A stretch of 64,000 nt of DNA. Source: Pseudomonadota bacterium. GTDB lineage: Bacteria > Myxococcota_A > UBA796 > SXON01. The stretch is from assembly GCA_030684355.1 (NCBI GenBank), contig JAUXTN010000246.1:5272-69271 (forward strand). The letters are read 5' to 3'. Shown here piece by piece: positions 15,373 through 64,000 of this stretch (its first letter is position 1; every line of letters starts with the position of its first letter). The translations under genes and the position numbers were made by a program. The notes beneath the pieces were generated by a model, which was given only the letters and a program-made list of their open reading frames with translations, was not told the DNA's origin and made no database searches.

Positions 15373-15448
15373 CGGGGTGTGGCGCAGCTGGTAGCGCGCT
15401 TGGTTCGGGACCAAGAGGCCGCAAGTTCGAATCTTGTCACCCCGACCA
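15373..15448 (+). tRNA. tRNA-Pro (anticodon CGG)
   Basis: Acceptor stem CGGGGTG/CACCCCG, anticodon arm CTTGG-TTCGGGA-CCAAG, T-loop GTTCGAAT, encoded CCA; 76 nt. Confidence 0.97.
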
Positions 15449-17014
15449 TACCGGATGGCGCAGGGTCCCACCAAGGGATTCTGCGCCATCCTCGTTTTTG
15501 GCACTCGCGAGTTCTGCAAGTGCATCGAAGGGTTTCCGGTACGTCGGCACCACGACTCCCGAGCGCAATTCGCAGTTCGAAAGAAGCAGATTGAGCAGCT
15601 TCCTCTGTTGCGACGGCTCTTTGGTGAGATACAGGTCGTACGCCGAACTTACGAGTTCTAAGACCTCCAGGGCCGTATCCATGACCTTGTGGTCGACCCG
15701 GGCGTACCGCTCGATGTCCTCGTGGGCGGACTGCATCCCTTCCTCCCACTCCAGGCGCTTGCGGGCGAAGAAGGCCTCGTCGACGCGGCCCTCGAGCTTG
15801 TCCTCGTAGGCCTTGTCGAGCATGCGGCGGAGGCGGTCGTAGCGGGCGCGTGCGTCGGCGAGGCGGATCGTGGTCTCGCGCACGACGTCGACGCGGGACG
15901 CCTTCAACGCGCGCGTGGCGAACGCGAGCTTGTCGGGGGGGAGTTGGAGCCCCTTGACCACCACGTGGGCGAACTGCTCGGTGATGCGCTCCTCGCGCAC
16001 GTAGGAGGACAGCTCGCACAGCTGCGCGCAGCGGTAGTAGGTGTACTTCTTCTTCTTCATCTCGGCGGTGATGGCGGCCCCGCAGCCGCAGGTCATCAGC
16101 CCCTGGTAGACGAAGTTGCGCGGGGCGGGCCGGGTGTCGGGGAACCCGTCGAGGCGGTCCTGCACGCGCTGCCACAGCTCGCGTGTCACCAGGGTGGGAT
16201 CCTTGCCCCGGTAGATGGTGCCCGCGAAGCGGAACTCGCCAGCGTAGATCGGGTTCCGGAGGATGAGGTGCAGCGCGCTGGGGTTGAGCTTGCCCCCGCG
16301 GCGCCCGGTCAGGTTGTAGTTCTTCGAGTACGCGACGAGGTCCTGGATGGAGTGCTGGCCCCGGTCGTAGAGGTCGAACAGGTTGCGCACGAGGACGGCG
16401 CGCTCGGGGTCGGGGACGATGAAGCTCTTGTCCCCGTCGCGCCGGTTCAGGTACCCGAAGGGGGCGACGCTGGGCCAGTACCCCTCCTCGGCCTTCATGA
16501 ACATGCCCTTCTTGACCTCCTCGGAGAGGTTGTCGACGTAGTTCTTGGCCATCAGCACCTTGATGCCGTGCATGAATTTCTCGGAGGACCGCGAGTCCTC
16601 GGAGACGACGATGTTCTCCTTCACCAGGTGGATCTCGGTCTTCATCTCGTCGACCGTGACCCAGTCCTTCAGGTTGCGGTACAGGCGGTCGGTCTTCTCG
16701 ACGAGCACGGCGGGCGGGTTCTGGTGCCGCTTGCGGACGTAGGCGAGCATCCTCTGGAAGTGGACGCGCCCCGTCCGCTTGGCGGTCTCCACGTCGATGA
16801 ACTCTTCGAGGATGTGGAACCCGCGATCGGCTGCGTACTCGCGGAGCAGCTTCTGCTGGGCGGGGATGGAGAAGCCCTCGCGCTCCTGGTCGCGGGAGGA
16901 GACGCGCGCGTACAGGACGGCGGGGCGGCGAGGGGGAGCCGGGGGCTCGACGATGGTGGGCTTCGAGGGGCTGCGGTCGCGACTGCTGTAGCGCACGTTG
17001 AACTCCGGGCCCAC
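15437..17014 (-). CDS. Large serine recombinase (integrase)
   Basis: YARVSSRDQ catalytic Ser, KTDRLYRN, recombinase domain APFGY...ILRNPIYAG, zinc ribbon CGCG...YYRC, coiled coil. Confidence 0.95.
   Translation of the reverse strand: MGPEFNVRYSSRDRSPSKPTIVEPPAPPRRPAVLYARVSSRDQEREGFSIPAQQKLLREYAADRGFHILEEFIDVETAKRTGRVHFQRMLAYVRKRHQNPPAVLVEKTDRLYRNLKDWVTVDEMKTEIHLVKENIVVSEDSRSSEKFMHGIKVLMAKNYVDNLSEEVKKGMFMKAEEGYWPSVAPFGYLNRRDGDKSFIVPDPERAVLVRNLFDLYDRGQHSIQDLVAYSKNYNLTGRRGGKLNPSALHLILRNPIYAGEFRFAGTIYRGKDPTLVTRELWQRVQDRLDGFPDTRPAPRNFVYQGLMTCGCGAAITAEMKKKKYTYYRCAQLCELSSYVREERITEQFAHVVVKGLQLPPDKLAFATRALKASRVDVVRETTIRLADARARYDRLRRMLDKAYEDKLEGRVDEAFFARKRLEWEEGMQSAHEDIERYARVDHKVMDTALEVLELVSSAYDLYLTKEPSQQRKLLNLLLSNCELRSGVVVPTYRKPFDALAELASAKNEDGAESLGGTLRHPVWSG
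15453..15499 (+). terminator. Rho-independent terminator after tRNA-Pro
   Basis: GGATGGCGCAG...CTGCGCCATCC stem followed by TCGTTTTT. Confidence 0.75.
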
Positions 17015-17091
17015 CGTTGGGCCGGTTCAAGTTGACATAATCGGAACCGATTGGAAACCCGCCACCCGATCGTCAGGGGCCGGTTCGTGCT

Positions 17092-19995
17092 TTACGCCGG
17101 TTCGAAGCTATAGAGCGGCGGGTGCCCCTTGCGCGGCTCGTCGCGACGCAGGCGGTAGCGCACATCCCCCACGGGGAACGTCGTTCCGTCGAGGTATCCC
17201 GTGAAGAGCTGGCCGATGATGGTGGCCTGGGCGCGTGCCGCGCGGAGGTTCCCCTTGCCGTCCGAGAGCTTCTCGGCGAGGACGCCGCGGGCCAGAAGGG
17301 TGGCCCACTCGCCTGCCGTCTGCGGGCCTTGCTCGTGATGTGCCGCGCACACGTCAACGAGCAGATCGTAGTCGGGGTCGAATGCGTGCTCGGAGTCGGC
17401 GAAGTTGGTGAGGAAGCCGTCGAAGCCCACACCGCGCAGGATGGCATCCATCGTGGCCGCCCAGCGGCGGTTGGTGCTGTGCGTGGCCGGCTGCTCCGGC
17501 ATCGGCTGACCGGCCCGAAGCCATGCCGCGACCATCCCCGCGAGCTCCGCGACGACGGCGAGCCGGGCGGCGAGGGCGTCACCCACGGGGTCGTCCGTGC
17601 GGTAGCGGTGGCGCCGGACATCGCCATCCACGAGGAGGTTGAGAGGCAGGGCGCGGCGGCGAAGATCCGCCCCCATCTGGGTGAGGTTCATCGTCACGAC
17701 GAACAGCACGTCGTTCAGGGGCCGGGTGATCGCCGTGTTGCTTCCGAGCCGACGAAAGTTCAGCCGGGTGTCGGTGATGCACCGCTCGAGTACGGGGCTC
17801 TCGATGGGACGGGCGGTCTTGGCGTTGTCGATCACCACGATCCGGTCGCCCGCCTCCACACGCGTGGCGAGCTGCTTCTCGAATTCCTCCTCGTTCGGGG
17901 TGAACGAGACGGTGGTGGGCTCGGTGCCCTCGGCGACCACCCCGAGCACTCGCGCAAGGGTGCTCTTCCCGACACCCGGCTTGTTCCCGTTGATGGCGAG
18001 GAAGGGGTGTCCTCGCCCCCAGTGCGGCATGGTCAGGGAGGTGAGGAGCGCGCCGATGAAGTTCACCATGTCGATGGCGTCCTTCCACGGGAAGTCCTGC
18101 ACGACGGCGAGGAGCCGCGTCACGCCGTCCACGGGCACGACCTCGGGCCCGTCGTAGAAGATGCCGCTTGCCGGGTGGAAGCCGGGCCTCCCCACGAAGG
18201 TCCACTGACGGTCGAATAGCGGGGTCCGCGCGTACATGGTGAGCATGGGCAGCTTGGCGGCGACGCGCGGTGAGTGGACGAACGCGCGAGACAGGTCCGA
18301 GGGGAGCACATCGAAGCGCTGGAACGACACGCCCTCGTCGGACGCGGAGAGGAAGCGGATCTCCACCAGCGCGGAGAGGAGCCCGGGCAGGCTGCGCTCG
18401 TCAACGGGGCGGGGCCCGAACCCGCGGCGCACGAACACGATGTCGCGCTCGAAGCGGAAGAAGCGGTTGGCAGGGGCCACCGCGGCCACCAGCGCGTCGA
18501 ACAGCCCGTCGACGGTGTCGCGGTTCTCGATGAAGTCGACGACGGGCAGGCCCGGCCGGGAGGGCGGCGACGCCTGGCTGCGCTGCCTCCGAGCGTCCCG
18601 ACGCGCCTCCACGAGGGCCGCCTCGAACGTCCGGGCGGTCAGACCGGCGATCGTGCGTACCTCCTCCAGCGCCGGCTCACGCGAGAGCGCAGGGAGCGTG
18701 ATCAGCGCTTGGAGCGTCGCGCGCATGGCCGCAGCGCGCGCCTCCGGCCCCGCGGCTGATCCCCAGGCGTCGCGGAAGGTGGCGACCAGGGAATCGATCG
18801 GCGGAGGCCCGGGCACCGGCATTCCTGAGAGCTCAGCGACCCGGGCGGCGGCGGCCCGGAAGTCGGCCGCCTGGCCCCTGCCGATGAGGAAGTCGAACAC
18901 GGAGAGCGACTCCCCCCGGACGAACGAGTGGAACGTGGCACGTTCTGCCTCGCCCGAGCCGTCCGCCACCCCTGCGGACGGATTGCGATCTCCGCTCTCG
19001 GACCAGGGATCGCGGCACTGAAGCCAGCCAGCGCCGGAGGCCTTCCCGGTGAGCAGGCCGCCGTACACGGCGGACAGGGGGAGGCGTTCGAGGGCAGCTC
19101 GCCGCCAATCCGTCCAGGCGGGCGACGGCGGTGTCGCGGGGGTGCTCGGACGTGCCGGCCGCGGCGGGGGCACCGCCGGCGCGGGGGGCACCTCCACATC
19201 GACCTCCGCGACGGCCAGCCGCTCGAACAGGTCCACGTCGTCCGGGATGGTGTCGAGGTCGATTGAGGCAAGTCGATGGGGGTGCTCCGCTGTCGGCGGT
19301 CCCTTCACCGCAACCGTCCCGTAGAGCTTGAGGATGCGCGACGGGTTGAAGGTGGACCGGTCGACCTTGGCGCCAGGCGTGGAGAAGCGGGTGTCGAGCA
19401 GGGCCAGGAGCCGGCGCGAGGCCTGCGCGTACCGCGCAACGTCGTCGCCGAACGCGGGCACCAACGGGACCAGCAGGTGGTAGCCGTTGCCGCTGTCCGC
19501 GAGCATCGGGCGGACGCCGTGCTCGTGGAACCACGCCCCGACCCGTGCCGCGACGGCGAACGCTTCGGCCTTCTCCGCGTCGGTGGCAGAGCGGTCGCGG
19601 GGCCGGCGCTCCGGGTCGATGTCGACGACCAGGAGCGAATAGGCGTGGATGTCTCGGTCCTTCGTGGCGCGGGACACCCGGCGGAGCGGGAGTCCCATCG
19701 GCCGAGCGGCCCCCAGGCCGACCGCCTGCAGGCTGAAGTAGATGCCCGCCTCGCCGCTTCGCGGGTGGTCCCCCTGCGGGACCTCGGCCCGCGGCGTGCC
19801 CGCGGCCGGACGGAGAGCGCCCATCAGGGCGTCCACGTCGCGCGGGCCGACAAAGGCGGACCACACTCCCGATGCCTTGCCCAGGATGCGGATCTCCGTG
19901 GCCCCGCCGAGCGCGGCGTTGCGGTCGAGGATCCATACGAGGAACGCCCGGAGGCAGGGCTCGCCGGCCCCCTCCTGCTTCAGCTCCGGCGGCAT
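17092..19995 (-). CDS. AEP-type primase-polymerase fused to a P-loop (SF3-like) helicase
   Basis: VVDIDP, DSGNGYH, VDRSTFNPSRILKLYGT (AEP motifs I-III); degenerate CHC2-like segment; Walker A GNKPGVGKS, Walker B IVVIDN, motif C TMN. Confidence 0.8.
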   Translation of the reverse strand: MPPELKQEGAGEPCLRAFLVWILDRNAALGGATEIRILGKASGVWSAFVGPRDVDALMGALRPAAGTPRAEVPQGDHPRSGEAGIYFSLQAVGLGAARPMGLPLRRVSRATKDRDIHAYSLLVVDIDPERRPRDRSATDAEKAEAFAVAARVGAWFHEHGVRPMLADSGNGYHLLVPLVPAFGDDVARYAQASRRLLALLDTRFSTPGAKVDRSTFNPSRILKLYGTVAVKGPPTAEHPHRLASIDLDTIPDDVDLFERLAVAEVDVEVPPAPAVPPPRPARPSTPATPPSPAWTDWRRAALERLPLSAVYGGLLTGKASGAGWLQCRDPWSESGDRNPSAGVADGSGEAERATFHSFVRGESLSVFDFLIGRGQAADFRAAAARVAELSGMPVPGPPPIDSLVATFRDAWGSAAGPEARAAAMRATLQALITLPALSREPALEEVRTIAGLTARTFEAALVEARRDARRQRSQASPPSRPGLPVVDFIENRDTVDGLFDALVAAVAPANRFFRFERDIVFVRRGFGPRPVDERSLPGLLSALVEIRFLSASDEGVSFQRFDVLPSDLSRAFVHSPRVAAKLPMLTMYARTPLFDRQWTFVGRPGFHPASGIFYDGPEVVPVDGVTRLLAVVQDFPWKDAIDMVNFIGALLTSLTMPHWGRGHPFLAINGNKPGVGKSTLARVLGVVAEGTEPTTVSFTPNEEEFEKQLATRVEAGDRIVVIDNAKTARPIESPVLERCITDTRLNFRRLGSNTAITRPLNDVLFVVTMNLTQMGADLRRRALPLNLLVDGDVRRHRYRTDDPVGDALAARLAVVAELAGMVAAWLRAGQPMPEQPATHSTNRRWAATMDAILRGVGFDGFLTNFADSEHAFDPDYDLLVDVCAAHHEQGPQTAGEWATLLARGVLAEKLSDGKGNLRAARAQATIIGQLFTGYLDGTTFPVGDVRYRLRRDEPRKGHPPLYSFEPA

Positions 19996-20799
19996 CTACG
20001 ACGCGCTTTCGGGCGGAGTCTCGCGGACCACGGCGACGATCATCCGCGCGCCCTTCTCGTTGTAGGCGAACGAGAGCTGCGGCCCCCCGTCGCGGGCCGC
20101 TCCGACGGCCGCCCGAGAGTAGGCGGGGGCCCCCCGAATCCCGAGCTGCCGGATCGCGAAGGCGACAGCCTCCTCGGACGCCCCCGCGGCGGCGGCGATC
20201 TCCGCCGCCGAGTACCAGCGTTCGTCCGGTTGGGGCTCCGAGAGCGATGTGAACAGGAGCAGTGTGCGAACCGCGCCTCGCACCAGCCCCGACTCCAGGG
20301 CACGCTGGACCAGGTGATCGAACGCGTGCCGTCCGCGCGCTTCTGGCCGGTCGGTACGAGGGACGAGGACGACCAGGACAAGCTCGCTCCCGTCCTTGGC
20401 GGGCGCCGCACGCGGGTGCTGCGCGATGCGCGGGAGCACCCCCTCGTCGAGGACCGAGAGCAGGCGGGCGCCCGCCGGAGTCGGCGTCTTCCCGAGGACC
20501 CGGTGGAGCCCGGCGGACGTGAGGAAGAGTGGGTGAGCCGCGCGCGCCGCGCGAGGGTCGGGTCCGCCGAGCAGCTCGGCGAGCGCCTCCGCCTCGGGGA
20601 TGACGTAGTCCTCGCCTTGCGTGAACTCGCGCTGCCACTCGTTCGTGACCAAGGTGCCCAGGCGGCGGCCGCGGTTCGGGTAGTCGAGGAGCTCTCCCAC
20701 CTGGGTGCATCGCCAGACCGGCTTGCCATCGAGGAGGAAAGTGTCGAGGCGCCGCCCGTCGAGGAGGGAAACGAGAGCGAGGCCAGTGTAGTGATTCAA
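19996..20799 (-). CDS. BRO-N / phage antirepressor-like protein
   Basis: DGKPVW..QVGELLDY, FTQGEDY, FLTSAGLHRVLGKTPTPAG...EGVLPRI; TTG start overlaps upstream stop. Confidence 0.7.
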   Translation of the reverse strand: MNHYTGLALVSLLDGRRLDTFLLDGKPVWRCTQVGELLDYPNRGRRLGTLVTNEWQREFTQGEDYVIPEAEALAELLGGPDPRAARAAHPLFLTSAGLHRVLGKTPTPAGARLLSVLDEGVLPRIAQHPRAAPAKDGSELVLVVLVPRTDRPEARGRHAFDHLVQRALESGLVRGAVRTLLLFTSLSEPQPDERWYSAAEIAAAAGASEEAVAFAIRQLGIRGAPAYSRAAVGAARDGGPQLSFAYNEKGARMIVAVVRETPPESAS

Positions 20800-21083
20800 G
20801 GCATCTCCGGGGGGAACTTCCGGCCGCGGGGCCGGCGCGGGCGCTTCCCGGAGACCATCTCCGGAGGCGCCGCCACTTCCTGCTCCGGTGCCTGAACCTC
20901 CTCGACGGCGCGCGCGTCGGCACGCCACTCGCTGAGGAGCGAGAGCACGTCCGTCACGCTCCGCGTCATGCCGTGCCCCTGATCGAGCGAGAGAGGCTCG
21001 TCGTAGTGGGGCTGGAAGACCTCGATGGCGAGCATCGCGAGGTCGCCAGCGGCGTCGGCGGAAGGCGGTTCAGACCGGAGCAT
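20796..21083 (-). CDS. Small protein of a type found beside serine integrases (candidate RDF)
   Basis: EVFQPHYDEPLS...VTDVLSLLSEW pattern; translationally coupled to BRO-N; function inferred. Confidence 0.5.
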   Translation of the reverse strand: MLRSEPPSADAAGDLAMLAIEVFQPHYDEPLSLDQGHGMTRSVTDVLSLLSEWRADARAVEEVQAPEQEVAAPPEMVSGKRPRRPRGRKFPPEMP

Positions 21084-21162
21084 GGGCGGAAGGTCGCCCG
21101 GCCCGGTTGTTCGTTCACTTGTACGGGAGAGGCCCGCGCCGCGGTGCGCTCACGGACGATCC

Positions 21163-23496
21163 TTAGTTTTCCGGGCGTGGACGCGAACGGCCCTTCAATC
21201 GATCGAGCTCATCGTCGAATCGGAAGCCGCGGGCCCGCAGAGGGGGTCGAAGGCGAATTCCGTTCCTTCCTTGGTTCTCGATGATCGCCTCGGCGGGCGC
21301 CTTGCCGATCTCCCTGCGGAGCCGGAGAAGATGCTGTGCAATCGTGTCGGGGGTCAGGGTGCGGCTCTCGTCGAGGGCGCAGAGGTCCGTGCGCTTCGCG
21401 AATTCGGTCCACCCGTGGCTCTCCCCCCACTCCTGCAGAAGCGCGAAGAGGAGCCTGTACAAAGGCATTTGCGGGCCCAGGATCGTCACGGTCCCCAGGC
21501 GGATGCCTCCGGTGGCGTCGGGCTCCACCCAGAGGGCCTCGTCCGTGTCCGCCGGGGGGGTGGGCTCCTCGTAGGCCCGGAGAATCACCGCCACCCCGTC
21601 GGCGAGGATGTCGGCGAAGCGGATGGAGGGCAGGCCCTGCTCGTCGGTGTGGGGGTCCAGCGCAATCCACCGGCAGCGCGGGGTCCCGGCGGACCGCCAC
21701 TCGGCGCCGGCCACCTCGAGCACCGCGAGCAGGTGCCGGCCGCGAGCGGGAACGCGCTTGCTGAACACACCCGGCTCATCCTCTTCCCACTGGCTGGCCG
21801 TCAGCTCTCCGCGCAGCCACGCCATCGCGGCGAGGACCAGCACCTGTACCCGGACGCGGTGGAGCCACGCGGGCCGGACGCGGTCGAGCGACCACTCGTG
21901 ATCGAAGTCACACACGGCGCGAGCGCCAGGCTCCTGGGCGAACTCGTCCTCGCTGCTCACCGTGCCGAACGGCAAGGTGACCTCCGAGGGGCAGTGGAGA
22001 GAGCCCGGGGGGCGGAAGGCGGCCGGAATACGGGTGTCTCCGCAGCGGAAGACACTCTCATGGCCGACGTGGACCAAGCCACGTTCGACGAGGGCGTTGA
22101 GCTCATCCCGCTGCCACCTGGCCGGCTGGTCGATGCGCCCGGAGAGCAGGATCGCGTAGTGGTCCCCGTCGAGCCGGCGTGGGCTGTTCTCGGCGCCCTG
22201 GTGTCGCCGACGACGGCGAGCGTCCGCCACCTTGGGGTGGATCTCCACACCGAGCTCGTTGAGCATCTTCGCGCGGAAGCGGTCGACCGTGTCCTTGTTG
22301 GTGCTCGTGTCTGCGAGCGAGAGCGCCAGGTCCTTCTCCTCATCGTGGGGCTCCGGAAAGAACAGCGCCATGCGGTAGTGCTCTCCCTCGTCGGCGAAGC
22401 TGATCTTCACGCGGTCGACGTGCCGCGAGTCCCGCGCGAATCCGAAGTGGCGACGCTGCGCCTGGGCGAGCTCCTCGACCCTCCCGCGCCCGGCGCGGTG
22501 GAGGGTGATGAGCGCCGGGTCCGCGTGCCCGGCCGTGGTCCCCACGATCTCGTGCAGCAGGAAGGCGGGGTCGTCGGCGTCGAGGAGCCGCTCGAGGAAG
22601 GCGTCGAGCCGCTCGCGGTTCAGCGGGTCGCGGGCGTGCTTGTACTGGACCTCGGCACCGAAGAGGAGGGTCCCGATCGCCGAGGCCAGCGGCAGGGCGC
22701 GGTCCATGTCGCGGGTGGTGATGTCCACCCTGGCGCCGCGGGCGTGGAAGCGGAGGAAGGTGAGGTCCTCCTTGGACATCGCCCGGGCGCGGTCCTCCTC
22801 GGGATCCCACTGGACCGAAGAGGTGCCGTGCCCGCGGAAGACGAGGAGCGCGTCATCGAGCCAGTCGCGGACGAGGGCCCGTTCGAAACGGAGCCCCTCG
22901 ACCGCGGATGCGGGCAGTCGGGCGTGACGCAGGCCCTCCTCCGCCAGCGTGTCCCAGGACAGCTCCGCGAGCGGCCGAGGGAGGCGTCGCTGGTGCCCCT
23001 GCAGCTTCATCGCCGCGCGTCCGCGTGGCAGCCACGCATCCCAGTAGTAGACGTCGGCGAGGCTCGCTGGCGCGTGCTGGAGAAGCCCGGCGAGCGCCGC
23101 CAGCCGGCGCTGGGCGCCCATCAGGTACGTGGCCCGTAGCGGGTCGGGCAGCGCGCGCCGGCAGGCCGACTCGATCGCTCGGAAGGACTTCTCCTCCGCG
23201 AACCACGCGAGGAGCATCAGGTGGGCGTGCCCGTGTTCGGAGCCCCACGCCTCGAGGAGCGAGCGAGCGACGGCGCGTTCCGTTGATCGGGACCAGAGGC
23301 GGTCGAACTCGGCGCCGACGGCGCCTTGGCGCACGAGACGACCGAGCTCGTTGAAGCGGCCGACGCGGAGCTCGCCGACCCAATAGTCCTCGGCGGGTGG
23401 GGCGAGCGGATTGAACGGCACAAGCACGGACGGGCTCCCCGAACCGGGGATGCGTCTTGGCGGGGAGCCGGACGGCCGCGATTCTGGTTGCCCCAA
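21163..23496 (-). CDS. Large hypothetical protein with C-terminal winged-HTH-like domain
   Basis: 777-aa ORF; C-terminal TPDTIAQHLLRLRREIG...IIENQGRNGIRL resembles an OmpR-type wHTH; start uncertain. Confidence 0.6.
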   Translation of the reverse strand: MGQPESRPSGSPPRRIPGSGSPSVLVPFNPLAPPAEDYWVGELRVGRFNELGRLVRQGAVGAEFDRLWSRSTERAVARSLLEAWGSEHGHAHLMLLAWFAEEKSFRAIESACRRALPDPLRATYLMGAQRRLAALAGLLQHAPASLADVYYWDAWLPRGRAAMKLQGHQRRLPRPLAELSWDTLAEEGLRHARLPASAVEGLRFERALVRDWLDDALLVFRGHGTSSVQWDPEEDRARAMSKEDLTFLRFHARGARVDITTRDMDRALPLASAIGTLLFGAEVQYKHARDPLNRERLDAFLERLLDADDPAFLLHEIVGTTAGHADPALITLHRAGRGRVEELAQAQRRHFGFARDSRHVDRVKISFADEGEHYRMALFFPEPHDEEKDLALSLADTSTNKDTVDRFRAKMLNELGVEIHPKVADARRRRRHQGAENSPRRLDGDHYAILLSGRIDQPARWQRDELNALVERGLVHVGHESVFRCGDTRIPAAFRPPGSLHCPSEVTLPFGTVSSEDEFAQEPGARAVCDFDHEWSLDRVRPAWLHRVRVQVLVLAAMAWLRGELTASQWEEDEPGVFSKRVPARGRHLLAVLEVAGAEWRSAGTPRCRWIALDPHTDEQGLPSIRFADILADGVAVILRAYEEPTPPADTDEALWVEPDATGGIRLGTVTILGPQMPLYRLLFALLQEWGESHGWTEFAKRTDLCALDESRTLTPDTIAQHLLRLRREIGKAPAEAIIENQGRNGIRLRPPLRARGFRFDDELDRLKGRSRPRPEN

Positions 23497-23550
23497 CGCC
23501 GACAGTTGACGTTTATTCGCCGATTCTTCGAGGGCGCGTCGAACGTGCCC

Positions 23551-24360
23551 TCAGTGAGCGTGCCCCCCGTGGTCGTGCCCGCCTGCGGGCGCCGCCTCTC
23601 CGGCCGCTGGATTGAACCCTAGCGAGAAGCTCGTCTCGCCCACCTTTACATCCACCATCACGGGCCGCGTGCCGGCCCCGTCGTGCTTGCCGGAGAGCAC
23701 GCCCGCCGCGGGGTCGAACGTGAGCGGGACCACGGTGTCCCCGTCCTTCAGGGAGCCGGTCACGCCCGTCACCTGCGCACGCTTGGCGTCGGTGACCCAC
23801 ACCCGGTGCTCGCCATCTTTGGGCGCGTACTCGAGGTGGTAGTCCCCCCACATCCCGACCTGACCGCCGTGGAGGGAGGTGTGGTCGTGCTCCTGGAGGC
23901 CCACGGACTTTGTCTCGAAGGACACGCTCTCCGCCTTCCCGCCGAACGTGAGGGTGAGGACCGCGGTGGCTGCGTCCTCCTGCGCGAGCTTCGCCGTGGC
24001 GTGGAGGTGATCCCCCATCGGCGCGAGCGTCACCGTCTCGACGCCGCTGGGGCTCTTCACGACGGCAGTGCCCGCGAAACCCTCCACGGGGAGCGGCTTC
24101 TGGGCGCTGTCGGAGACGTAGAACATGATGCCGCCGGGCATGAAGAGCGCCTCGACGTGGTGCTGGCCCACGGTCTTGACCTCGCCGCCATGGGGGCTTG
24201 CGTGGGCGTGCGCGCCGCTGGCGTGTCCGGAGGCCGCGGGCGCAGCAGGCGCCGCGGGTGCGGGGGGCGCGCTGGGTTGGGCCGGCGCGGCGGGCGCCGG
24301 TGCGGTGGGCTCGGAAGAGCAGGCGGCGACGAGGATGAGGAGCGGGAGCAGGGTGCGCAT
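23551..24360 (-). CDS. His-rich lipoprotein associated with metal RND efflux
   Basis: LVAAC lipobox; two HxHxxxHGG units; C-terminal GHDHGGHAH. Confidence 0.75.
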   Translation of the reverse strand: MRTLLPLLILVAACSSEPTAPAPAAPAQPSAPPAPAAPAAPAASGHASGAHAHASPHGGEVKTVGQHHVEALFMPGGIMFYVSDSAQKPLPVEGFAGTAVVKSPSGVETVTLAPMGDHLHATAKLAQEDAATAVLTLTFGGKAESVSFETKSVGLQEHDHTSLHGGQVGMWGDYHLEYAPKDGEHRVWVTDAKRAQVTGVTGSLKDGDTVVPLTFDPAAGVLSGKHDGAGTRPVMVDVKVGETSFSLGFNPAAGEAAPAGGHDHGGHAH

Positions 24361-24404
24361 GGAGATTTTCCTGGGTGTGAGCTGGGAGGTGGGGGGCGAA
24401 GGAG

Positions 24405-27530: not shown

Positions 27531-27533
27531 TGG

Positions 27534-52315: not shown

Positions 52316-52620
52316 ACCAAGCGTTCCTCTCGCGCTTCGGCTGCTGCGGCCCGGACCACGTCCGAGGCGTCGTCCGGGAGCTCCTCGCCCACGGCGTGGC
52401 GCGCACGGCGCACGGCCACGGGGTGCGCCTCGTCGCGTTCGGCGCGTCGGGAGTCGTGCCGGGCGTCCTGACGATCCACTTCGGCCACGTCATCGACTTC
52501 CTCCGGACCTACGTCCGGGAGAACTGGGAGGAGATCATGGCCGGTCGAACGAAGGATCCGGCGCTCGACTGGATCGTCATCGAGGAGAAGGCGCGGAGGG
52601 GTCGTGACCGGGACGAATGA
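52312..52620 (+). CDS. Small hypothetical protein (possibly truncated remnant)
   Basis: 102-aa ORF coupled to the ATPase stop and overlapping the ldh start. Confidence 0.45.
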   Translation: MNQAFLSRFGCCGPDHVRGVVRELLAHGVARTAHGHGVRLVAFGASGVVPGVLTIHFGHVIDFLRTYVRENWEEIMAGRTKDPALDWIVIEEKARRGRDRDE

Positions 52621-54965: not shown

Positions 54966-57413
54966 ATGCCCCCGTCTCCCCCTGCGCCGACTCTCGAACG
55001 CACATCGGATCCCGTCTGCGGCATGCAGGTGGACCCCGCGAAAGCCGCCGCCACCGCCGAGTACGGCGGGGCCACCTGGCATTTCTGCAGCAAGGGCTGC
55101 CACGCGAAATTCCAGGCCGATCCGGCGCGCTACACCGGGACGGGACTCGCCTCAAGCGCGGAGGCCGCTCCGTCCGGTGGCCACGGGACGCATGGACATC
55201 ACGACGTCCAGCCCCCCGCTGCTCGGGCGCCTCACGAGCCCGTATCGTTGAAGGCGGGCAAGTGGACCTGCCCCATGCACCCCCAGATCGTGCGGGACGG
55301 TCCCGGGTCGTGCCCGATCTGCGGCATGGCGCTCGAACCGATGGAGGTGACGGCCGAGGAGACGGGCCCCTCGCCCGAGCTCGTGGACATGACCCGTCGT
55401 CTCGTCGGCAGCGCGATCCTGACCGTTCCCGTCCTGCTCCTGGTGATGTCCGAGATGCTTCCCGGGCAGCCCGTCCAGCGGTTCATCCCGGCACAGGTGG
55501 ACGCCTGGATTCAGCTCGCGCTCGCCACCCCCGTCGTGCTCTGGGGTGGCTGGCCCTTCTTCGTGCGCGGCGCGGCCTCGGTGAAGAACCGCTCGCCCAA
55601 CATGTTCACGCTCATCGCTCTCGGGATCGGCGTGGCGTGGGCGTACAGCGTGTTCGCCACGTTGTTCCCCGGCGCGCTCCCCGAGGCCTTCCGGGGCCAC
55701 CACGGGCGGGTGCCGCTCTACTTCGAAGCCGCCGCGGTCATCACCACCCTCGTGCTCGTCGGACAGGTGTTGGAGCTCCGCGCACGCAGCCAGACGAGCG
55801 ACGCCATCAAGAAGCTCCTCTCGCTGGCCCCGCCGAGCGCCCGCATCGTCCGCGACGACGGGCGTGAAGAGGACGTGCCCGTCGAGCAGGTCCAGGTCGG
55901 CGACAAGCTCCGTGTGCGTCCGGGCGAGAAGGTCCCCGTCGACGGCACCCTCCTCGAAGGGGAGAGCCACGTCGACGAGTCGATGGTCACCGGCGAGCCG
56001 CTACCTGTGGCGAAAGGCACAGGCGACCGGGTCATCGGCGCCACCGTGAACACCGCCGGCGGCTTCCTCATGCGGGCCGAGCGCGTGGGCCGCGACACCC
56101 TCCTCGCACAGATCGTCCGGATGGTCGGCGAGGCCCAGCGCAGCCGCGCGCCCATCCAGCGCCTCGCCGACACGGTCTCGGCATGGTTCGTGCCACTCGT
56201 CATGCTCATCGCCGTCGCGACCTTCATCGTCTGGGCGCTGATCGGCCCCGAGCCGCGCTTCTCGTACGCGCTGCTCAACGCCGTGGCGGTGCTCATCATC
56301 GCGTGTCCTTGCGCGCTCGGACTCGCTACTCCGATGGCCATCATGGTCGGCACCGGGCGCGGGGCCACCGCGGGCGTCCTCGTCCGAGACGCCGAAGCGC
56401 TCGAGAACCTCGAGAAGGTCGACACGCTCGTCGTCGACAAGACAGGCACCCTGACGGAGGGGCGCCCAACGCTCGGTGCGGTCGAGGTTGTTTCATGGGG
56501 CGGGGGGCAGGCCCCCCGCAACGCCCCCCAGAACCCGCTGGATGTCGACACCCTCCTCCGCCTCGTCGCCAGCGTGGAGCGCGGCAGCGAACACCCGCTC
56601 GCCACCGCGATCGTGAAGGGCGCCGAGGCGCGGGGGCTGACGCTCGCGCCGCCGCAGGGCTTCAAGTCGCTCACCGGGCGGGGCGTGGAGGGCCAGGTGG
56701 ATGGACGCACCGTCCTCGCCGGCAACGCACGCCTGATGGAGGAACATGGGGTCGACGCCACCGCGCTGATCGCGCGTGCCGAGGCCCTACGCGCCGAGGG
56801 CCAGATCGCGATGCTCGTCGCCATCGACGGACTTCCCGCCGGCGTCGTCGCGGTCACGGACCCCATCAAGGAGTCGACGCCCGACACCATCCGGATGCTC
56901 CGCGCAGAAGGGCTGCGCGTCGTCATGCTCACCGGCGACAGCCGCACCACCGCCCTCGCGGTCGCCCGCAAGCTCGGCATCGACGAGGTCGAAGCCGAGG
57001 TACTCCCCGAGCAGAAGGCGGAGGTGATCCGACGCTTGAAAGCCGAGGGCCGGGTCGTGGCCATGGCGGGGGACGGCATCAACGACGCGCCCGCGCTCGC
57101 GTCCGCGGACGTTGGCATCGCGATGGGGACCGGCACCGACGTGGCGATGGAGAGCGCCGGCGTGACGTTGGTGAAGGGAGACCTGCGCGGCCTGGTCCGG
57201 GCCAGGCGGCTCTCGCGCGCAACGATGCGCGGCATCCGTCAGAACCTGGTGTTCGCGTTCGGCTACAACGCGCTGGGCGTGCCGATCGCGGCGGGGCTGC
57301 TCTTCCCCATCTTCGGCTGGCTGCTCTCGCCGATGATCGCCAGCGCAGCGATGAGCTTGAGCTCGGTGTCCGTGATCGCGAACTCGTTGCGCTTGCGGAA
57401 GGTGGAGCTGTAG
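54966..57413 (+). CDS. copA: Cu(I)-translocating P1B ATPase with YHS and CPMHP metal-binding domains
   Basis: [54 protein letters not shown]. Confidence 0.96.
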
Positions 57414-57494: not shown

Positions 57495-57935
<441 letters not shown>

Positions 57936-58796: not shown

Positions 58797-60254
58797 TCAC
58801 ATCCCGTCGTCCATCCCGTCCTCCACCATCAGCATGCCAGCCATGCCTAGCTCCGCGTGCTCGAGGATGTGGCAGTGGTACATCCAGTCCCCCGGGTTGT
58901 CCATCTCGCTCGCCAGGGTGACCGAGGCGTAGGGCGGGATGTCGAAGGTGTCCTTCCAACCTGACAAGGCGGGCGGGATGCCGTCGACGTCGAGCACCTG
59001 GAACCGGTTTCCATGGATGTGGAAGGGGTGGTGCATCTCGGAGTCGTTCTGGACCACGAACGTCGCGGCAACGTCGGCGGACGCCTGCACTTCCGGCACG
59101 TCCGGGTAGGAGAAGCCATCGACGGTGACGATGCCGTTCTCCATGTCCTCGTCGAGAACCCAGGTGTGCACCAGGGGCTCCTCGCCGGTGAAGGACGGGA
59201 GGTCGTCCGAAGGGAGCGTCATGGGCGTGGGCGTGCCCGCCTCGTCGCCGATCACGAAGGTCATCACGGGGTTCTCGCCCTCGCCCATCGGGTCGTACTC
59301 GACCATGTGGGCGTCTTCAGCGTGGAGCTGGAAGCGGGCGCTCATGAGCCGCAGCTCGTCGCCCGGGGCGCCGACCCAATCGACCGCCACGATGTACCGC
59401 TCGCCCGGCGAGACCACGAGGTGGTCCACGGGCACCTCCTCGCCGAGCCAGCCGCCGTCGGTCCCCACGACCCGCATCTGCTGGCCTTCGAGGGTGAGAT
59501 CGAAGTGGCGCGCGTTCGCCGCGTTCACGAGCCGGAGCAGCATCGTTTCGCCGGCCTTCACCTCGACGCGGCGGTCCGAGCGGCCGTTCGCCAGGATCAG
59601 GTTCCCGAGGCGGCCCATGAGCTGCATGTGCTCGGTGTCCTTCGGGGCGATCTGCATCGTGTCCTCGTCGAGGAGGATGTCGTCGAGCACCACGGGGAGG
59701 TCGCAGTCGACCCGGGGCTCGTCCGGGTGGTGCACGATGATGCGGCCGTATAGCCCGCGCTCGAGGTCCTGCTCCGTCGCCATGTGAGGGTGGTACCAGT
59801 AGAAGCCGGCATCCACCATCGGGATCTCGTAGGTGAACGAGCCGCCGGCGGGGACCATGTCGATCATGCGCGCGGCCCCGTCCATGGCGTCCGGCGCGCG
59901 GAAACCGTGCCAGTGGACCGTGGAGTCGTACTCGAGCCCGTTCGTGAACTCGGCGCGCAGCGTCTGGCCCAGGTCGAGCTCCAGTACCGGCCCAGGGATC
60001 TCGGCGTTGTAGGCGAGGCCGTCCGTCAGCATCGTGCCCGTACCGGGGTCCCACTCGAAGGGAGCCTGGGCGAGGTCGACCGCGACCACATCGTCGGCGG
60101 GGTCGAGGTCGGTTGCGGGCGTGTACCCGCAGCGCTCCGTGGGGAGGGGCAAGGGGTCGCCGGTGTCGTCGTCGCCCGCAGAGTCCGCGGGGCTGTCCGA
60201 AGTCTTGTTCCCGGTGCAGGCGGGGAGGAGGAGGGCGAGGAGCGGGAGGAGCAT
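58797..60254 (-). CDS. Multicopper oxidase lipoprotein
   Basis: HWHG, WYHPH, HPFHIHG, HCHILEHAELGM. Confidence 0.95.
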   Translation of the reverse strand: MLLPLLALLLPACTGNKTSDSPADSAGDDDTGDPLPLPTERCGYTPATDLDPADDVVAVDLAQAPFEWDPGTGTMLTDGLAYNAEIPGPVLELDLGQTLRAEFTNGLEYDSTVHWHGFRAPDAMDGAARMIDMVPAGGSFTYEIPMVDAGFYWYHPHMATEQDLERGLYGRIIVHHPDEPRVDCDLPVVLDDILLDEDTMQIAPKDTEHMQLMGRLGNLILANGRSDRRVEVKAGETMLLRLVNAANARHFDLTLEGQQMRVVGTDGGWLGEEVPVDHLVVSPGERYIVAVDWVGAPGDELRLMSARFQLHAEDAHMVEYDPMGEGENPVMTFVIGDEAGTPTPMTLPSDDLPSFTGEEPLVHTWVLDEDMENGIVTVDGFSYPDVPEVQASADVAATFVVQNDSEMHHPFHIHGNRFQVLDVDGIPPALSGWKDTFDIPPYASVTLASEMDNPGDWMYHCHILEHAELGMAGMLMVEDGMDDGM

Positions 60255-60320
60255 GGGGGCCTCGGTGTGACGGGGCGGGTCACGGACCGGCCGGTCGCGG
60301 CGGGTCCACAGACACCCTTA

Positions 60321-61129: not shown

Positions 61130-61175
61130 TCGACATAGCAGGCATCCTTGGATGAAGATCGACGAACGGTCTCGG

Positions 61176-61664
61176 CTACGCTGCCTCCACCCCAATCTCC
61201 CCGAAACGCCCCAACGGCACCGCCTTCCGCATCCCCGGCCGAAGCCGCACGGCGAACTCCGCCACCGTCCCTCCGCTCGCCCCCGAGGTGAACCGCGGCC
61301 CGAGCGCATCGCCCGCGGCGAGCTCGGCGGCGAGCTGCGCCCGGAGCACGTCGACGGCGGCCGGCGGCACGATGAGGACGAGCGCGCCGTGGTGATTGTA
61401 GAAGCCGATCTCGCCCATGAGCTTCACCGGGATGGAGAGCCCCTCGCCGTCGGGGATGGCGAGCGGGTACACGTCGACCGGGCCGGCGGTGCCCGACCGC
61501 TGGTACCGCGAGCCGATCATCAGCGGGGCGAGCGCCTCGGCGAGGTCCATGCCGACGAGGGCCTTGAGCCCGTCGAAGGAGAACGGGCCGAGCCGCACGG
61601 CCGTGGTCGGCGCGGTGAGGTTGACCCGCAGCGCCGAGCGGTCCTCGCGAAGAGCCGGGTTCAC
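61176..61664 (-). CDS. Hypothetical protein
   Basis: 162-aa ORF with gene-like codon usage, GTGA-coupled to upstream gene. Confidence 0.7.
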   Translation of the reverse strand: MNPALREDRSALRVNLTAPTTAVRLGPFSFDGLKALVGMDLAEALAPLMIGSRYQRSGTAGPVDVYPLAIPDGEGLSIPVKLMGEIGFYNHHGALVLIVPPAAVDVLRAQLAAELAAGDALGPRFTSGASGGTVAEFAVRLRPGMRKAVPLGRFGEIGVEAA

Positions 61665-62221
61665 GCGCCCTCCGTCGCGTCCGCGGCGGGACGCCGCGCG
61701 TTGGCGGGGAGCACCTCGGGCACGAGGGCGTCCCCGTTGCCGTGGTCCTCCTCCTCCACCTCCATCGCGTCCTCGAGGTCGGTGTCCTCGTCACCCTCGT
61801 CCCCGTCGTCGGCGGGGTCCTCATCGGCATCGTCGTCACCCTCACGCCCGCGGGCCGCGCCCTCGAGCAGGTCGAGCATCTCGTCCTGCCCCTTGGCGAT
61901 GACGACCAGCGCCTTGCGGATGCCGGGGAGGTGCCGCAGGGCGGTGAGCGCCTTCGGGTCGAGCCCGCCGAGCGCGGCCTGGATGCCCTTGAGCGTGGCG
62001 TGGATGTCCGCGAGCGCCTGGACCTGGCGGAAGGTGAGGTGCGCCTGGTGGAACGCCTGCTCCTCGGGCTCCATCTCTGCGAAGGCCTCGGCGGACTCGA
62101 GGAGCGCCTCCTTCGTGCGGCCGTCGAAGCTGTCGGCGTAGAAGCGGTCGATCACATCGGCCCACTCGGGCTTCTTCTCGGTGCGGATGCGGGGCAGACG
62201 GGTAGCGCGGGTCTCCGACAT
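61661..62221 (-). CDS. Hypothetical protein with acidic C-terminal tract
   Basis: GGAGG RBS; helical N-terminus; D/E-rich tail. Confidence 0.75.
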   Translation of the reverse strand: MSETRATRLPRIRTEKKPEWADVIDRFYADSFDGRTKEALLESAEAFAEMEPEEQAFHQAHLTFRQVQALADIHATLKGIQAALGGLDPKALTALRHLPGIRKALVVIAKGQDEMLDLLEGAARGREGDDDADEDPADDGDEGDEDTDLEDAMEVEEEDHGNGDALVPEVLPANARRPAADATEGA

Positions 62222-62257
62222 GGAGCCTCCTGGGGGGTGGACGGTTGGGAGAGCGGG

Positions 62258-63283
62258 TCAGGCCGCGGCGGGCTGGTCCTGCGGCGAAGCGTTCGGGGGC
62301 GCGGCGGAGCGAGCGGCCATCATCAGCAGCTCGGCGAGCTCCTTCCGCGTTTTCTCGTCCCGGAGCATCTTGCGGACCTCCGGGTTCTTCATCGCGTCCA
62401 ACAGCTCGGGCGACGCGTTGACGATCTCGGCGAGCTCCATCAGCTCGGGCGCCATGCCGAACTTGGCGGAGGCGAAGACGCGGCCGAAGGTCCCGAGCTC
62501 TGAGATGAACTGCTTGCCGAGCTCCTCGCGCATGCGGCTCGCGTCCACGTCCTCGCGGCGCGTGGTGTCCGCCTCCGCGACGCCGACGCGCATCTTGACC
62601 ACCTCGCCCATCAGCTCCTCGAGCACCCGCTGGAGCCGCAGGATCTGCGTGTTCTGGTTCGAGATGGTGGTGTTCTGGAGCGTGGCGAGGTGGGCGTAGG
62701 ACTTCTGGAGGAGCTCGATGAGGTGGGTGTAGCCGCCCCCCAGCGCGCCCCAGACACGGGCCTCGGGCAGGGATTCGAGCGAGGGGTGCGCGGGCGCGGC
62801 GGCCACCGTGGGGGCGGGGAAGGACGAAGCCGGGAGCGCGGTGGATGCGGGCACCGACGGCGCGACCGGCGCGTCCGGATCGAACGTCGGATCCATGCAA
62901 CCGAAGCGCGCCGAGAACAGGATCTGTTCGCCCTTCGGGCGCCACACGAACACGCGGAACCGGCACTCGGCCCGACCCGGCATGTTCTGGGAGGCCGTCT
63001 CCCGGATCCAACGACACACTCCCTCGGCGAGGCGCAGCGCGGGGTCGTCTAGCGTGGCCGCGTCACCGAGCTCCCCGAGCTCGCCCGCCTCCTCGAACTC
63101 GACCGGAGGCGCGGGGTCGAACGCATACGGCGCGAGGTCCGTCTCCGTGAAGTCGACACGGCCGATCCCCTCGATGTGGTGGCGGTCCACCACCTCGGAG
63201 ACGGAGACGTAGCCGATGTCCGCGCGCACCTGGCGGATGCGGCGCTCGATCGTTTCCAGGGAGTCGTACACGTATCGCGACAT
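62258..63283 (-). CDS. Hypothetical protein with Pro/Ala linker and C-terminal coiled coil
   Basis: ATG 63283 (MSRYVYDS...); long helical C-terminal region. Confidence 0.75.
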   Translation of the reverse strand: MSRYVYDSLETIERRIRQVRADIGYVSVSEVVDRHHIEGIGRVDFTETDLAPYAFDPAPPVEFEEAGELGELGDAATLDDPALRLAEGVCRWIRETASQNMPGRAECRFRVFVWRPKGEQILFSARFGCMDPTFDPDAPVAPSVPASTALPASSFPAPTVAAAPAHPSLESLPEARVWGALGGGYTHLIELLQKSYAHLATLQNTTISNQNTQILRLQRVLEELMGEVVKMRVGVAEADTTRREDVDASRMREELGKQFISELGTFGRVFASAKFGMAPELMELAEIVNASPELLDAMKNPEVRKMLRDEKTRKELAELLMMAARSAAPPNASPQDQPAAA

Positions 63284-63359
63284 CGGTCGATTTCCGGGGG
63301 CCAGCGAGGTCGCCAACCGTGCTGGAACCGTATCTCAGCACCGCTTCCACGGGCGGAAA

Positions 63360-63635
63360 AACCGCTTACCGCCTCCTACCGCGCTTACCGCGTACGCCTA
63401 CCGCGCCCGGCCGATTCCTTACCGCAGTGGTTTCCGCGGCTTGGAATTGACTTACCGCGCGCCCAAGCGTCGTCTACCGCGCCACGATCGGTTTCGAGGT
63501 GCGCTTACCGCGGCCTCAGGGTGCGCCTACCGCGCGGCGCGCACGCTTTCCACGCGACCCTCATCGTCTACCGCGGCGGGGGTGGCACTTACCGCCAGGA
63601 TGTCGATGGGGCGCGGTAGGAAGCGGTAAGCGGAA
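63360..63635. repeat. Helically phased YTACCGC iteron-like array
   Basis: TACCGC at 63367, 63377, 63386, 63399, 63420, 63453, 63475, 63506, 63528, 63569, 63590; inverted GCGGTA at 63613 and 63623. Confidence 0.85.
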
Positions 63636-63745
63636 GTCCCTTCCTGTGCCGGTTCGGGGCTCATAGTTGGTTTGTGTCGGCCGGGTTGTGCCGGCCCCCC
63701 ACTCTGACCGGCACGGCTGGTCCCATCCCCGAGGAAGTCACCCCC

Positions 63746-64000
63746 ATGAGCACCGCTCTCTCCAAGGCCGTCGCAGGCGAGAAGGTTCCCGACAGCAAGA
63801 AGAACGGCGTCCTCTCCGAGGCGCTCGACAAGGTCAAGAGCCTGGGCGGGCGCATCTCGAAGGCCAAGGAGATGTCGGAGACGCTCGCGGACGCCGTGAT
63901 CGCCACCGCGGAGACGCAGGGCACCGTGTTCGCGGCCTCGTTCGCCGAGGGGTACTTCGGCGAGGAGAAGATGGACGTGGGCCCGGTCGACCTGCGGCTC
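63746..64000 (+). CDS. Hypothetical protein (partial; runs off right edge)
   Basis: GAGG RBS, ATG 63746; MSTALSKAVAGEKVPDSKKNG...FAASFAEGYFGEEKMDVGPVDLRL, open to the window end. Confidence 0.75.
   Translation, partial: MSTALSKAVAGEKVPDSKKNGVLSEALDKVKSLGGRISKAKEMSETLADAVIATAETQGTVFAASFAEGYFGEEKMDVGPVDLRL

Follow-up and report, generated by a model that had tools for sequence, protein, structure and literature searches.

We analysed a 64,000-nt stretch of DNA (the window; forward-strand positions 5272–69271 of contig JAUXTN010000246.1, here C164, in assembly GCA_030684355.1) which from position 15373 onwards is occupied by an element integrated at a proline tRNA gene. The source genome (G000) is a 7.7-Mb metagenome-assembled genome (MAG) of approximately 70% GC, and because raw lists of open reading frames (ORFs) were noisy at such GC, genes were called by third-position GC content (GC3). 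Coordinates are in window numbering unless a contig is given, and contigs (C) without a genome label (G) are those of G000. An earlier note on this DNA had described integration at tRNA-Pro with a serine integrase, and both were recovered here as a tRNA-Pro(cgg) gene overlapped at its 3′ end by a three-domain large serine recombinase (LSR). The genes of the element form a left arm (LSR, p967, p267, p79 and p754) and a right arm (p162, p186 and p337), all on the minus strand, which bracket a cargo block of 37,754 nt as the note had outlined; beyond the right arm lies a divergent gene module (Table 1). Pfam was searched with 30 window proteins and with 10 module proteins each from contigs C253 and C70 (50 in all), and NCBIfam with 10 backbone proteins.

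Table 1. Features of the element in the window.
Feature	Position	Strand	Basis or remark
tRNA-Pro(cgg)	15373–15448	+	ARAGORN; integration target (attL)
Large serine recombinase, 525 aa	15437–17014	-	Pfam and motif reading
p967, AEP primase-polymerase fused to SF3/D5-type helicase	17092–19995	-	Motifs and PHROGs
p267, possible BRO-N-like DNA-binding protein	19996–20799	-	Sub-cutoff Pfam match
p79, small protein	20796–21035	-	GC3 call; 73% paralog in C148
p754, OmpR-like winged-helix motif at C-terminus	21163–23427	-	By eye only
Cargo, metal-resistance and metabolism block, 37,754 nt	23422–61175		Collinearity with G001:C3
p162, conserved core protein	61176–61664	-	70–84% paralogs in C148/C93/C70
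p186, conserved acidic core protein	61661–62221	-	60–68% paralogs in C148, C93, C70
p337, most divergent right-arm/core protein	62258–63271	-	43–70% identity among paralogs
CYTACCGC array, 11 motifs (9 direct, 2 inverted) and 2 TCTACCGC variants	63365–63630		Candidate iterons/operators
206-aa gene, start of divergent conserved module	63746–64366 (past window end)	+	Gene call; conserved order

The recombinase matched the Pfam families Resolvase (E 1.3e-21, residues 32–179), Recombinase (8.8e-13) and Zn_ribbon_recom (6.9e-06), all above cutoff, and a YARVSSRDQ motif could be read directly. The resolvase domain with the catalytic serine is N-terminal, and the Recombinase and zinc beta-ribbon domains are C-terminal to it. 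The 3′ ends of the LSR and tRNA genes overlap by 12 nt, so that the last LSR codons lie within the tRNA. Comparison with related genomes revealed that the tRNA-Pro(cgg) site was empty in G001, G003 and G005 and occupied in G000 and G004. At each of the empty sites the tRNA is followed by its own terminator, and the occupied sites part from the empty ones right after ...GACCA. The native flank of this tRNA was found in G000 at C51:27463–27593, directly after a copy of the attachment arm (...GGCCATCCCGACCA), and at this attR-type junction only CCCGACCA is common to arm and tRNA end. A further copy, at tRNA-Glu on C70, has attL and attR on one contig; the empty tRNA-Glu site of G005 puts the native flank at C70:53359, which makes this copy 41,659 nt long. 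Its attR arm, ...CCCGTTAGGCTCACCA, mimics the tRNA end, ...CCCGTTGGGATCACCA, and identity past the last mismatch is limited to TCACCA. The stretch shared by attP and attB is thus 6–8 nt by junction comparison, and a short crossover core is a requirement of serine recombinases. From these junctions we infer that crossover occurs within the last ~8 nt of tRNA-Pro(cgg) (CCCGACCA), and the LSR is predicted to catalyse attP × attB recombination at this short core. The element replaces the last tRNA bases, its own end restoring the 3′ end of the gene, and brings a terminator hairpin with it.

For none of the four tRNAs occupied by element copies did the assembly contain a second copy of the tRNA 3′ end of 14 nt or longer. 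Other exact 12-mers of the tRNA-Pro 3′ end (two on C1, one each on C141 and C170) were discarded as att sites as they lie in coding-like context, and C124 proved to be the unoccupied tRNA-Pro(ggg) of G000. C178, which carries an arm with its crossover core and a 116-nt remnant of the LSR 3′ end (93%), was rejected as a simple attR since it continues into element-type sequence and not into native flank. A search with the arm motif gave nothing in the remaining contig of G004 or in C70, C93, C148 and C164. The contigs of four sequencing runs contained no interpretable attB/attP joint; many short-sided joints (side 21–30) were taken as repeat noise.

Arrays of ~100-nt arm repeats were also observed. 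Each repeat closes with a pseudo-tRNA 3′ end (...CCGACCA or ...CCAACCA), behind which lies a terminator hairpin, and the repeats are spaced 1.7–5.5 kb apart. They are found in G000 on C51 (21.9, 24.9, 27.4 and 30.0 kb), C253 (5.3, 9.2, 10.9 and 16.4 kb), C252 (15.2 kb), C1 (3.8–4.3 kb) and C178 (5.7–6.0 kb), and at locus L012 (2437–2742). LSR gene fragments lie beside some of them (C178, C1 and the 'empty' locus of G001). These arrays resemble the piled-up remains of earlier insertions at tRNA hotspots.

The two arms were found together in the absence of the large cargo in a genome of the same genus. Contig G001:C3 is collinear with the window over 15372–23421 (88% identity over 8,060 nt) and over 61176–63920 (96.4% over 2,745 nt), and the two blocks are 1,300 nt apart compared with 37.75 kb in the window, which indicates that the cargo fills a variable slot. 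The LSR of G001:C3 is 98.3% identical to that of the window but is located at tRNA-Pro(ggg), which shares the terminal TCACCCCGACCA; a near-identical LSR at another tRNA-Pro gene argues for recent independent insertion. Matches to p967 and p162 were spaced ~5.9 kb apart in G004:C123 (at tRNA-Pro(cgg)), ~14.5 kb in C148 and ~11.6 kb in G008:C108. The earlier proposal that both arms belong to one element is borne out by G001:C3, and the check suggested with it, that the arms co-occur elsewhere without the cargo, gave these three further contigs as well. No att-like site, which would have pointed to two elements in tandem, was found between the arms. We conclude that the locus is very probably a single element, integrated at a tRNA gene and mobilised by its LSR, which has a replication module and a slot for cargo, and that window positions 15.4–64 kb are the left two-thirds or less of it.

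G000 has LSR paralogs on C148 (at tRNA-Gln(ttg)), C70 (at tRNA-Glu(ttc)) and C93 (at tRNA-Asp(gtc)), and in each case the LSR 3′ end overlaps the tRNA 3′ end. Both arms are present on C148 and, in rearranged order, on C93. The C70 copy has the right arm and a non-orthologous primase-helicase (PriCT_1, D5_N, DUF5906) which replaces p967; it also carries a type III restriction-modification (RM) pair, SocA and a small resolvase, and Pfam revealed no transfer genes in it. On C93 (12.6–58.7 kb) the left-arm genes and the core module are each inverted relative to the LSR and are 12 kb apart with a tRNA-Leu within, an order due either to rearrangement or to MAG misassembly. At G001:C27:58986–60492 a truncated p967 (residues 15–397) lies beside a p162 fragment with an in-frame TAG; this locus is a decayed copy which keeps pieces of both arms. 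The complete, single-contig genome G083 (C1:1,557,000–1,606,000; L059–L061) has a related element at tRNA-Lys/tRNA-Glu with a tyrosine integrase. Also encoded by this element are a MoxR-type AAA protein, a sigma-54 activator, DUF3644 and a type I RM system, and the genome has seven module-gene matches.

The habit of targeting tRNA genes extends to the relatives of this LSR in metagenomes, a very widespread clade of which at least 509 members were confirmed among the 600 pattern matches listed. Eighty loci were fetched (L071–L150; 42–63% identity to the window LSR), 66 of which were evaluable, and in 49 of these (47 by script, L071 and L139 read from printed rows) an opposite-strand tRNA abuts or overlaps the LSR 3′ end. 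The targets are mainly tRNA-Asn(gtt) and tRNA-Gln(ctg/ttg), and overlap lengths recur within 12–66 nt, mostly 15, 42 and 63. Targeting of the tRNA 3′ end is a clade-wide habit of these LSRs. Only the two closest loci (L071 and L072) share backbone genes with the window, and the 17 evaluable loci without a tRNA had none, so that none could be read as attP. An integrase gene whose 3′ end overlaps that of a tRNA is otherwise a habit of tyrosine integrases, and our literature search found no paper on LSRs which target tRNA 3′ ends with an overlapping integrase gene.

The largest left-arm protein, p967, contains both parts of a fusion between an archaeo-eukaryotic primase (AEP) and an SF3 helicase. 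Direct reading gave AEP motif I as LLVVDID (DxD), motif II as SGNGYHLL (sGxGxH) and a P-loop GVGKST at residue 676 in the C-terminal helicase region, and residues 630–900 match three PHROG primase/helicase families (7e-21 to 8e-14), among them phrog_19930 'DNA polymerase/primase' (residues 631–901, 8.2e-14). The AEP-helicase assignment of the earlier note was therefore upheld. Pfam AEP models did not detect p967, a permissive pass gave DUF5906 (D5-type helicase domain) below cutoff at E 0.032, and a sequence search of PDB returned no matches. Paralogs of p967 are found on C148 (80% identity) and C93 (55%). For p267 the name BRO-N is weakly supported, as the Pfam match covers nearly the full profile (positions 8–96 of 96) but at E 0.017 and 16.2 bits lies below the cutoff of 25.6; PADLOC gave one marginal match (mad1, E 0.00014, 30 residues), and homologs occur on C148 (57%), in G083 (28%) and at L071 and L072. 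The winged-helix reading of p754 stands as an OmpR-like motif seen by eye and fails in every tool, with no match in Pfam, PHROGs, NCBIfam, PADLOC or PDB (two chance-level matches in the last); p754 has a 76% paralog on C148 and a 33% homolog at L072. None of p967, p267, p79 and p754 had a Pfam match at E ≤ 0.01.

The three right-arm proteins had no match above cutoff in Pfam, PHROGs, NCBIfam or PADLOC. A sub-cutoff Pfam match of p186 to DUF3106 (E 0.00052, 20.9 bits against a cutoff of 24.3) was recorded, and for p337 ESM Atlas gave 0.92 to unnamed viral and Myxococcota clusters, a lead only, with recognition below the mark. Between p337 and the divergent 206-aa gene is a 474-nt intergenic region which contains the CYTACCGC array. 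This motif occurs 14 times in the window against 2.56 expected, a number reached by none of 100 shuffles, and 11 of the 14 are in the array, in agreement with the iteron-like array and divergent gene of the earlier note. Each of the four copies in G000 has its own repeated motif at this spacer: CTTACCGC, CCTACAGC, AACCGCG with CCTACCGC, and CTTGCCGC. The arrays may be iterons or operators which diverged together with a binding protein and let related copies coexist, and p337 is a candidate for the protein which provides this specificity.

The cargo begins upstream of p754 and ends exactly at the stop codon of p162. Between 24.4 and 60.6 kb Pfam identified two RND pumps with HlyD-type adaptors and an outer-membrane factor (OEP), two P-type ATPases, of which one has a heavy-metal-binding domain, a multicopper oxidase, a sigma-54 two-component pair (activator and histidine kinase), thioredoxin-like and methyltransferase proteins, an M15 peptidase, trehalose synthase (TreT), lactate/malate dehydrogenase (LDH) and phosphofructokinase (PFK). 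No direct or terminal inverted repeats were found at the cargo flanks, and four CCCGACCA 8-mers within the cargo were rejected as att sites, all being in coding sequence and without arm context. A unitig of the probable source run (X1) spans the p754/cargo junction at ~29x, the same depth as its neighbours, and a contig of an independent sample (X2) which matches the cargo diverges at 23550; the evidence of the runs on this left junction is weak because it consists of contigs only. Second copies of cargo segments (23533–28639, 45827–49920, 49941–52299, 52619–54521, 55007–57409 and 58807–60272) are present at 80–92% identity on C111, C141, C76 and C226 of the same assembly, and may stem either from a related strain binned together with this one or from another metal-resistance island. 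A 24-nt inverted repeat (60814–60837/61071–61094, 96% complementary, AGGTCCGCC units) close to the right boundary of the cargo, on its inner side, may be an operator or a recombination scar.

The element does not end at 64000, the limit given in the earlier note, and runs on past the end of the contig. C164 is 70,996 bp long and stops 1.7 kb past the window, still inside the element, and has a 108-nt end overlap with each of C252 and C253. The same operon (~15–16 kb) continues on C252, C253, C70, C93 and G004:C123. After the 206-aa gene it encodes proteins of ~254, 184–213, 138, 190, 269, 218, 485–546 and 84 aa, followed by a 1710–1730-aa protein (Eco57I-type methylase, SNF2 and Helicase_C in Pfam), a 282-aa protein with a weak lysozyme-like match (Glyco_hydro_46, E 0.0014), a 97-aa protein, a C5 cytosine methylase and an 820–903-aa protein with weak GHKL ATPase matches. 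The first eight operon proteins had no Pfam or PHROGs match, and the two of them scanned with NCBIfam (269 and 485 aa) had none there; NCBIfam gave no family for any of the 10 backbone proteins, and PADLOC gave only generic SNF2 and C5-methylase matches apart from the marginal p267 match. Walks in the assembly graph halt after one or two steps. The arm core on C252, CCGACCA, fits tRNA-Pro and that on C253, CCAACCA, fits tRNA-Gln; the window copy is at least 64.9 kb, and taking the arm copy at C252:15187 as its attR would bring it to 112.6 kb. Copy size therefore ranges from 41.7 kb to at least 64.9 kb, and possibly to 112.6 kb.

The ~210-aa module gene was found in 55 of 154 genomes of the bacterial order (25 of 61 when restricted to high-quality genomes), in 33 of 68 genera and in all seven families, with up to eight matches per genome. 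The gene order 203/246/~210/138/188 was kept in 30 fetched loci down to 30–40% identity, and this conservation across the order implies selection on the module. The 485-aa protein had 113 homologs at E ≤ 0.001; among the matches listed there was no Pfam domain, and those with names were all 'hypothetical protein' and mostly labelled as Myxococcota MAGs. Within the family of the source, p162 was present in 16 and p967 in 17 of 33 genomes. By eye, 22 of the 42 listed p162 places had a listed ~210-aa match on their own contig at a distance of 4–13 kb, and the other 20 were mostly on short contigs or at contig ends.

Three small beta-rich proteins are encoded next to each other in the module, and one of them bears acidic repeats and an Arg-rich arm. 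Other module products are a strongly basic protein, a protein in which three hydrophobic segments were seen (3-TM), the lysozyme-like protein and a 188-aa family with invariant Cys67, His123 and Asp137/138, which is peptidase-like. The ~210-aa protein was modelled (26-row alignment, pLDDT 82.9) as all-beta with two beta-sandwich/jelly-roll domains, and Foldseek matches of the model (E 3e-6 to 1e-3) comprised XepA, a secreted protein of Bacteroides and capsid proteins from PRD1/PR772, PM2, STIV and PBCV-1. Three copies were predicted to associate head to tail with a score of 0.77 (best control 0.00), contact agreement of at least 91% and partner pLDDT of at least 83. In the calibration of the tool, from which this run differs by its own alignment and its three copies, 20 of 30 solved homo-pairs attained the mark for association, as did 1 of 23 single chains. 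ESM Atlas gave phage XepA and Bbp16 clusters (0.80–0.84), as leads only, and hhalign found no relationship between the ~210-aa and 138-aa families. For the 485-aa protein Foldseek returned nothing in PDB at E ≤ 0.001; one BFVD row (4e-4) was discarded at TM 0.18 and rmsd 26.6, a VIA-wide structure search gave generic helical bundles only (residues 300–420), and tblastn against phage genomes gave no match. Profiles A4 and A5 matched nothing in PDB below E 0.2.

Taken together these data support a tRNA-integrating, cargo-carrying island, predicted to be self-replicating, with a widespread and previously unrecognised conserved core. The backbone would read attL, LSR, p967, p267, p79, p754, variable slot, p162, p186, p337, array and divergent operon. 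Integration and excision by the LSR at the 3′ end of tRNA-Pro(cgg) are well supported by comparison, though deduced from sequence. Self-replication is suggested by the intact AEP/SF3 primase-helicase and the motif array, and the chances are about even that an excised circle is replicated by the primase-helicase from or near the array in a copy-specific manner, with p337 the probable reader. More tentatively, the conserved operon might build an envelope-associated or particle-like structure which moves DNA between cells, the alternative being passive or hitch-hiking transfer. The cargo, to judge from its protein families, would benefit the host under metal stress.

Several points weigh against this scheme. 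The source genome is a MAG (93.6% complete, 4.3% contamination), the far end of the window copy is not assembled, and C164 forks to C252 and C253. Support from run contigs covers the left cargo junction and not the right one, and no attP junction or circular form was found in the run contigs or among the metagenome LSR loci. The replication origin and the binding of p337 are inferences. The order is inverted on C93, and on G018:C3 p967 lies at the opposite side of the module, so either the arms are not always arranged alike or these MAG contigs are chimeric. The same arrangements, the use of MAG contigs and the tandem remnants at tRNA sites could be taken to mean that the arms are separate, tandem or chimerically assembled elements; this is very improbable given that G001:C3 is collinear over both arms, that C148, G004:C123 and G008:C108 have the same order, that the stretch between the arms lacks an att-like site and that a unitig bridges the left junction.

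The function of the ~20-kb core, from p162 to the 485-aa protein and beyond, is where the readings differ most. It is possible, though doubtful, that the core encodes a virion or DNA-transfer particle of a new tailless temperate virus lineage of Myxococcota with serine or tyrosine integrases, AEP/D5 primase-helicases, copy-specific iterons and adaptive cargo. The element would then be a provirus with a jelly-roll capsid and possibly a membrane, of which the copy lengthened by cargo is probably packaging-defective; we hold this provirus reading to be a minority possibility. Some tailless jelly-roll viruses are temperate and integrating, and large methylase-helicases, of which the module encodes one, are known from phage P1 (DarB) and from conjugative plasmids. 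The virion-like set of beta-rich, basic, 3-TM, peptidase-like and lysozyme-like proteins, the two-jelly-roll model with its capsid-protein matches and predicted self-association, and the Atlas leads would all suit such a virus, as would the interchangeable integrase module (LSR here, tyrosine integrase in G083) and the several copies per genome with copy-specific arrays, as in immunity groups. However, the Foldseek matches have TM values of only 0.19–0.34, as for generic jelly rolls, and with an independent aligner the best match (Z 10.5, a value in the common range of the tool) was to cellular GOLD domains. Jelly-roll and double-jelly-roll-like folds are also reported from cellular proteins (PMC8812541). 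No terminase, portal, capsid or packaging ATPase family was detected by Pfam or PHROGs in the arms and module, the module proteins of C70, C253 and C164 contain no Walker A motif ([AG]xxxxGK[ST]), and neither IMG/VR viral contigs (profiles A1 and A2) nor the phage collection held relatives. Sizes of 41.7 to at least 64.9 kb are, moreover, hard to fit to one capsid.

An island which was once mobile and is now kept for its cargo and its RM or defence genes, with the operon serving the host or defence, is unlikely. The large cargo, the methylases, GHKL ATPase, type III and type I RM systems and SocA of the various copies, the arm remnants and LSR fragments piled up near tRNA sites and the lack of recognised transfer machinery are consistent with it, but the backbone ORFs are all intact in the four paralogs, a relative has its 98.3%-identical LSR at another tRNA-Pro gene, presence or absence is polymorphic inside the genus, and gene order kept down to 30–40% identity implies selection. 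Still less probable is an integrative mobilisable or conjugative element with highly divergent transfer genes or a helper conjugation system. The size plasticity, the large methylase-helicase and the membrane proteins of the module would suit conjugation, and the lysozyme-like protein could be a VirB1-like transglycosylase; against this, the module has no P-loop ATPase, and Pfam found no relaxase, coupling protein, VirB4 or type IV secretion family among the 50 proteins of the element copies, although very divergent forms could escape. The absence of conjugation, transposase, terminase and tail genes given in the earlier note agrees with the Pfam result for the 30 window proteins, among which portal and other integrase families were likewise not found.

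Compared with known systems, the island is closest in function to the tycheposons of Prochlorococcus and other marine bacteria, a likeness by description. Tycheposons are described as tRNA-integrated elements with replication genes and adaptive cargo, in which the recombinase is a tyrosine enzyme or, in 27 of 937, a large serine one, and whose remnants accumulate by the tRNA (10.1101/2020.12.28.424599). Integration by a tRNA-specific recombinase, a replication module with primase/helicase, exchangeable cargo in a modular slot (1.3–37.75 kb here) and degenerate remnants with partial tRNAs are common to both; the island differs in host phylum, in its larger size (41.7 kb without the big cargo), in its ~20-kb core of unrecognised proteins, for which the tycheposon description has no counterpart, and in its metal-resistance cargo. 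The mobile elements with an AEP PrimPol-helicase described by Kazlauskas et al. (2018, PMC5862659) are flanked by att repeats, lie mostly in tRNA genes and use tyrosine or serine recombinases; again by description, they share the AEP primase fused or linked to a helicase and the tRNA integration, whereas p967 escapes every Pfam AEP model. Phage-inducible chromosomal islands (PICIs) and P4 satellites also combine an integrase and primase-helicase by a tRNA with multiple related copies and interference or defence genes, but they are ~10–15 kb and have terS and capsid-redirecting or tailed-phage capsid genes, whereas the C70 copy, with both ends mapped, measures 41.7 kb, neither a terS nor a capsid family was detected and no helper was evident. 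Nor is the element a recognisable tailed prophage, as terminase, portal, HK97-fold capsid and tail families were all absent from the arms and module (Pfam/PHROG). With PRD1, PM2, STIV and the sphaerolipoviruses it shares self-associating jelly-roll proteins (here predicted), small membrane proteins and a lysis-type enzyme; in contrast to these, no FtsK/HerA-type packaging ATPase was found, the capsid match is weak and the size is larger and variable. The LSR resembles those of phages and integrative and conjugative elements (phiC31, Bxb1, TnpX, CcrAB) in its three-domain architecture and short attP/attB identity (6–8 nt here), and differs in that its clade targets the extreme tRNA 3′ end with its own 3′ end overlapping. 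The term 'undescribed class' used in the earlier note is plausible for the backbone family, since there is no Pfam, PHROGs or NCBIfam match and our literature search found no description of it (paper supplements may list related elements); it does not hold for the kind, as tRNA-integrated replicative cargo islands are already known.

If these readings are correct, one element family would form a major, unannotated part of the mobilome of a soil, sediment and groundwater order of Myxococcota, missed by virus and plasmid detectors because most core proteins match no Pfam, PHROG or NCBIfam family. An LSR clade which uses tRNA 3′ ends and rebuilds the tRNA from the end of its own gene would inform target choice and provide integrases whose landing sites are natural and conserved. 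The variable slot would show how an island that replicates itself can take along ~38 kb of metal-resistance genes, and the copy-specific arrays are a testable case for the coexistence of related elements in one cell.

Two observations concern the sequence to the left of the element. Just upstream of tRNA-Pro, at 14207–14522, are two short repeat families, further copies of which (79–94% identity) are spread over many contigs in G000 and in its relatives, and summed contig depth in the source run was very high, at 376 in the 14401–14801 bin; a miniature element or a small dispersed repeat is a possible explanation. Further left, at 10938–13793, long overlapping frames of 943 aa (minus strand) and 855 aa (plus strand), both of high GC3, coincide with an extreme AT skew (-0.31 to +0.33) and may represent a repetitive or low-complexity gene.

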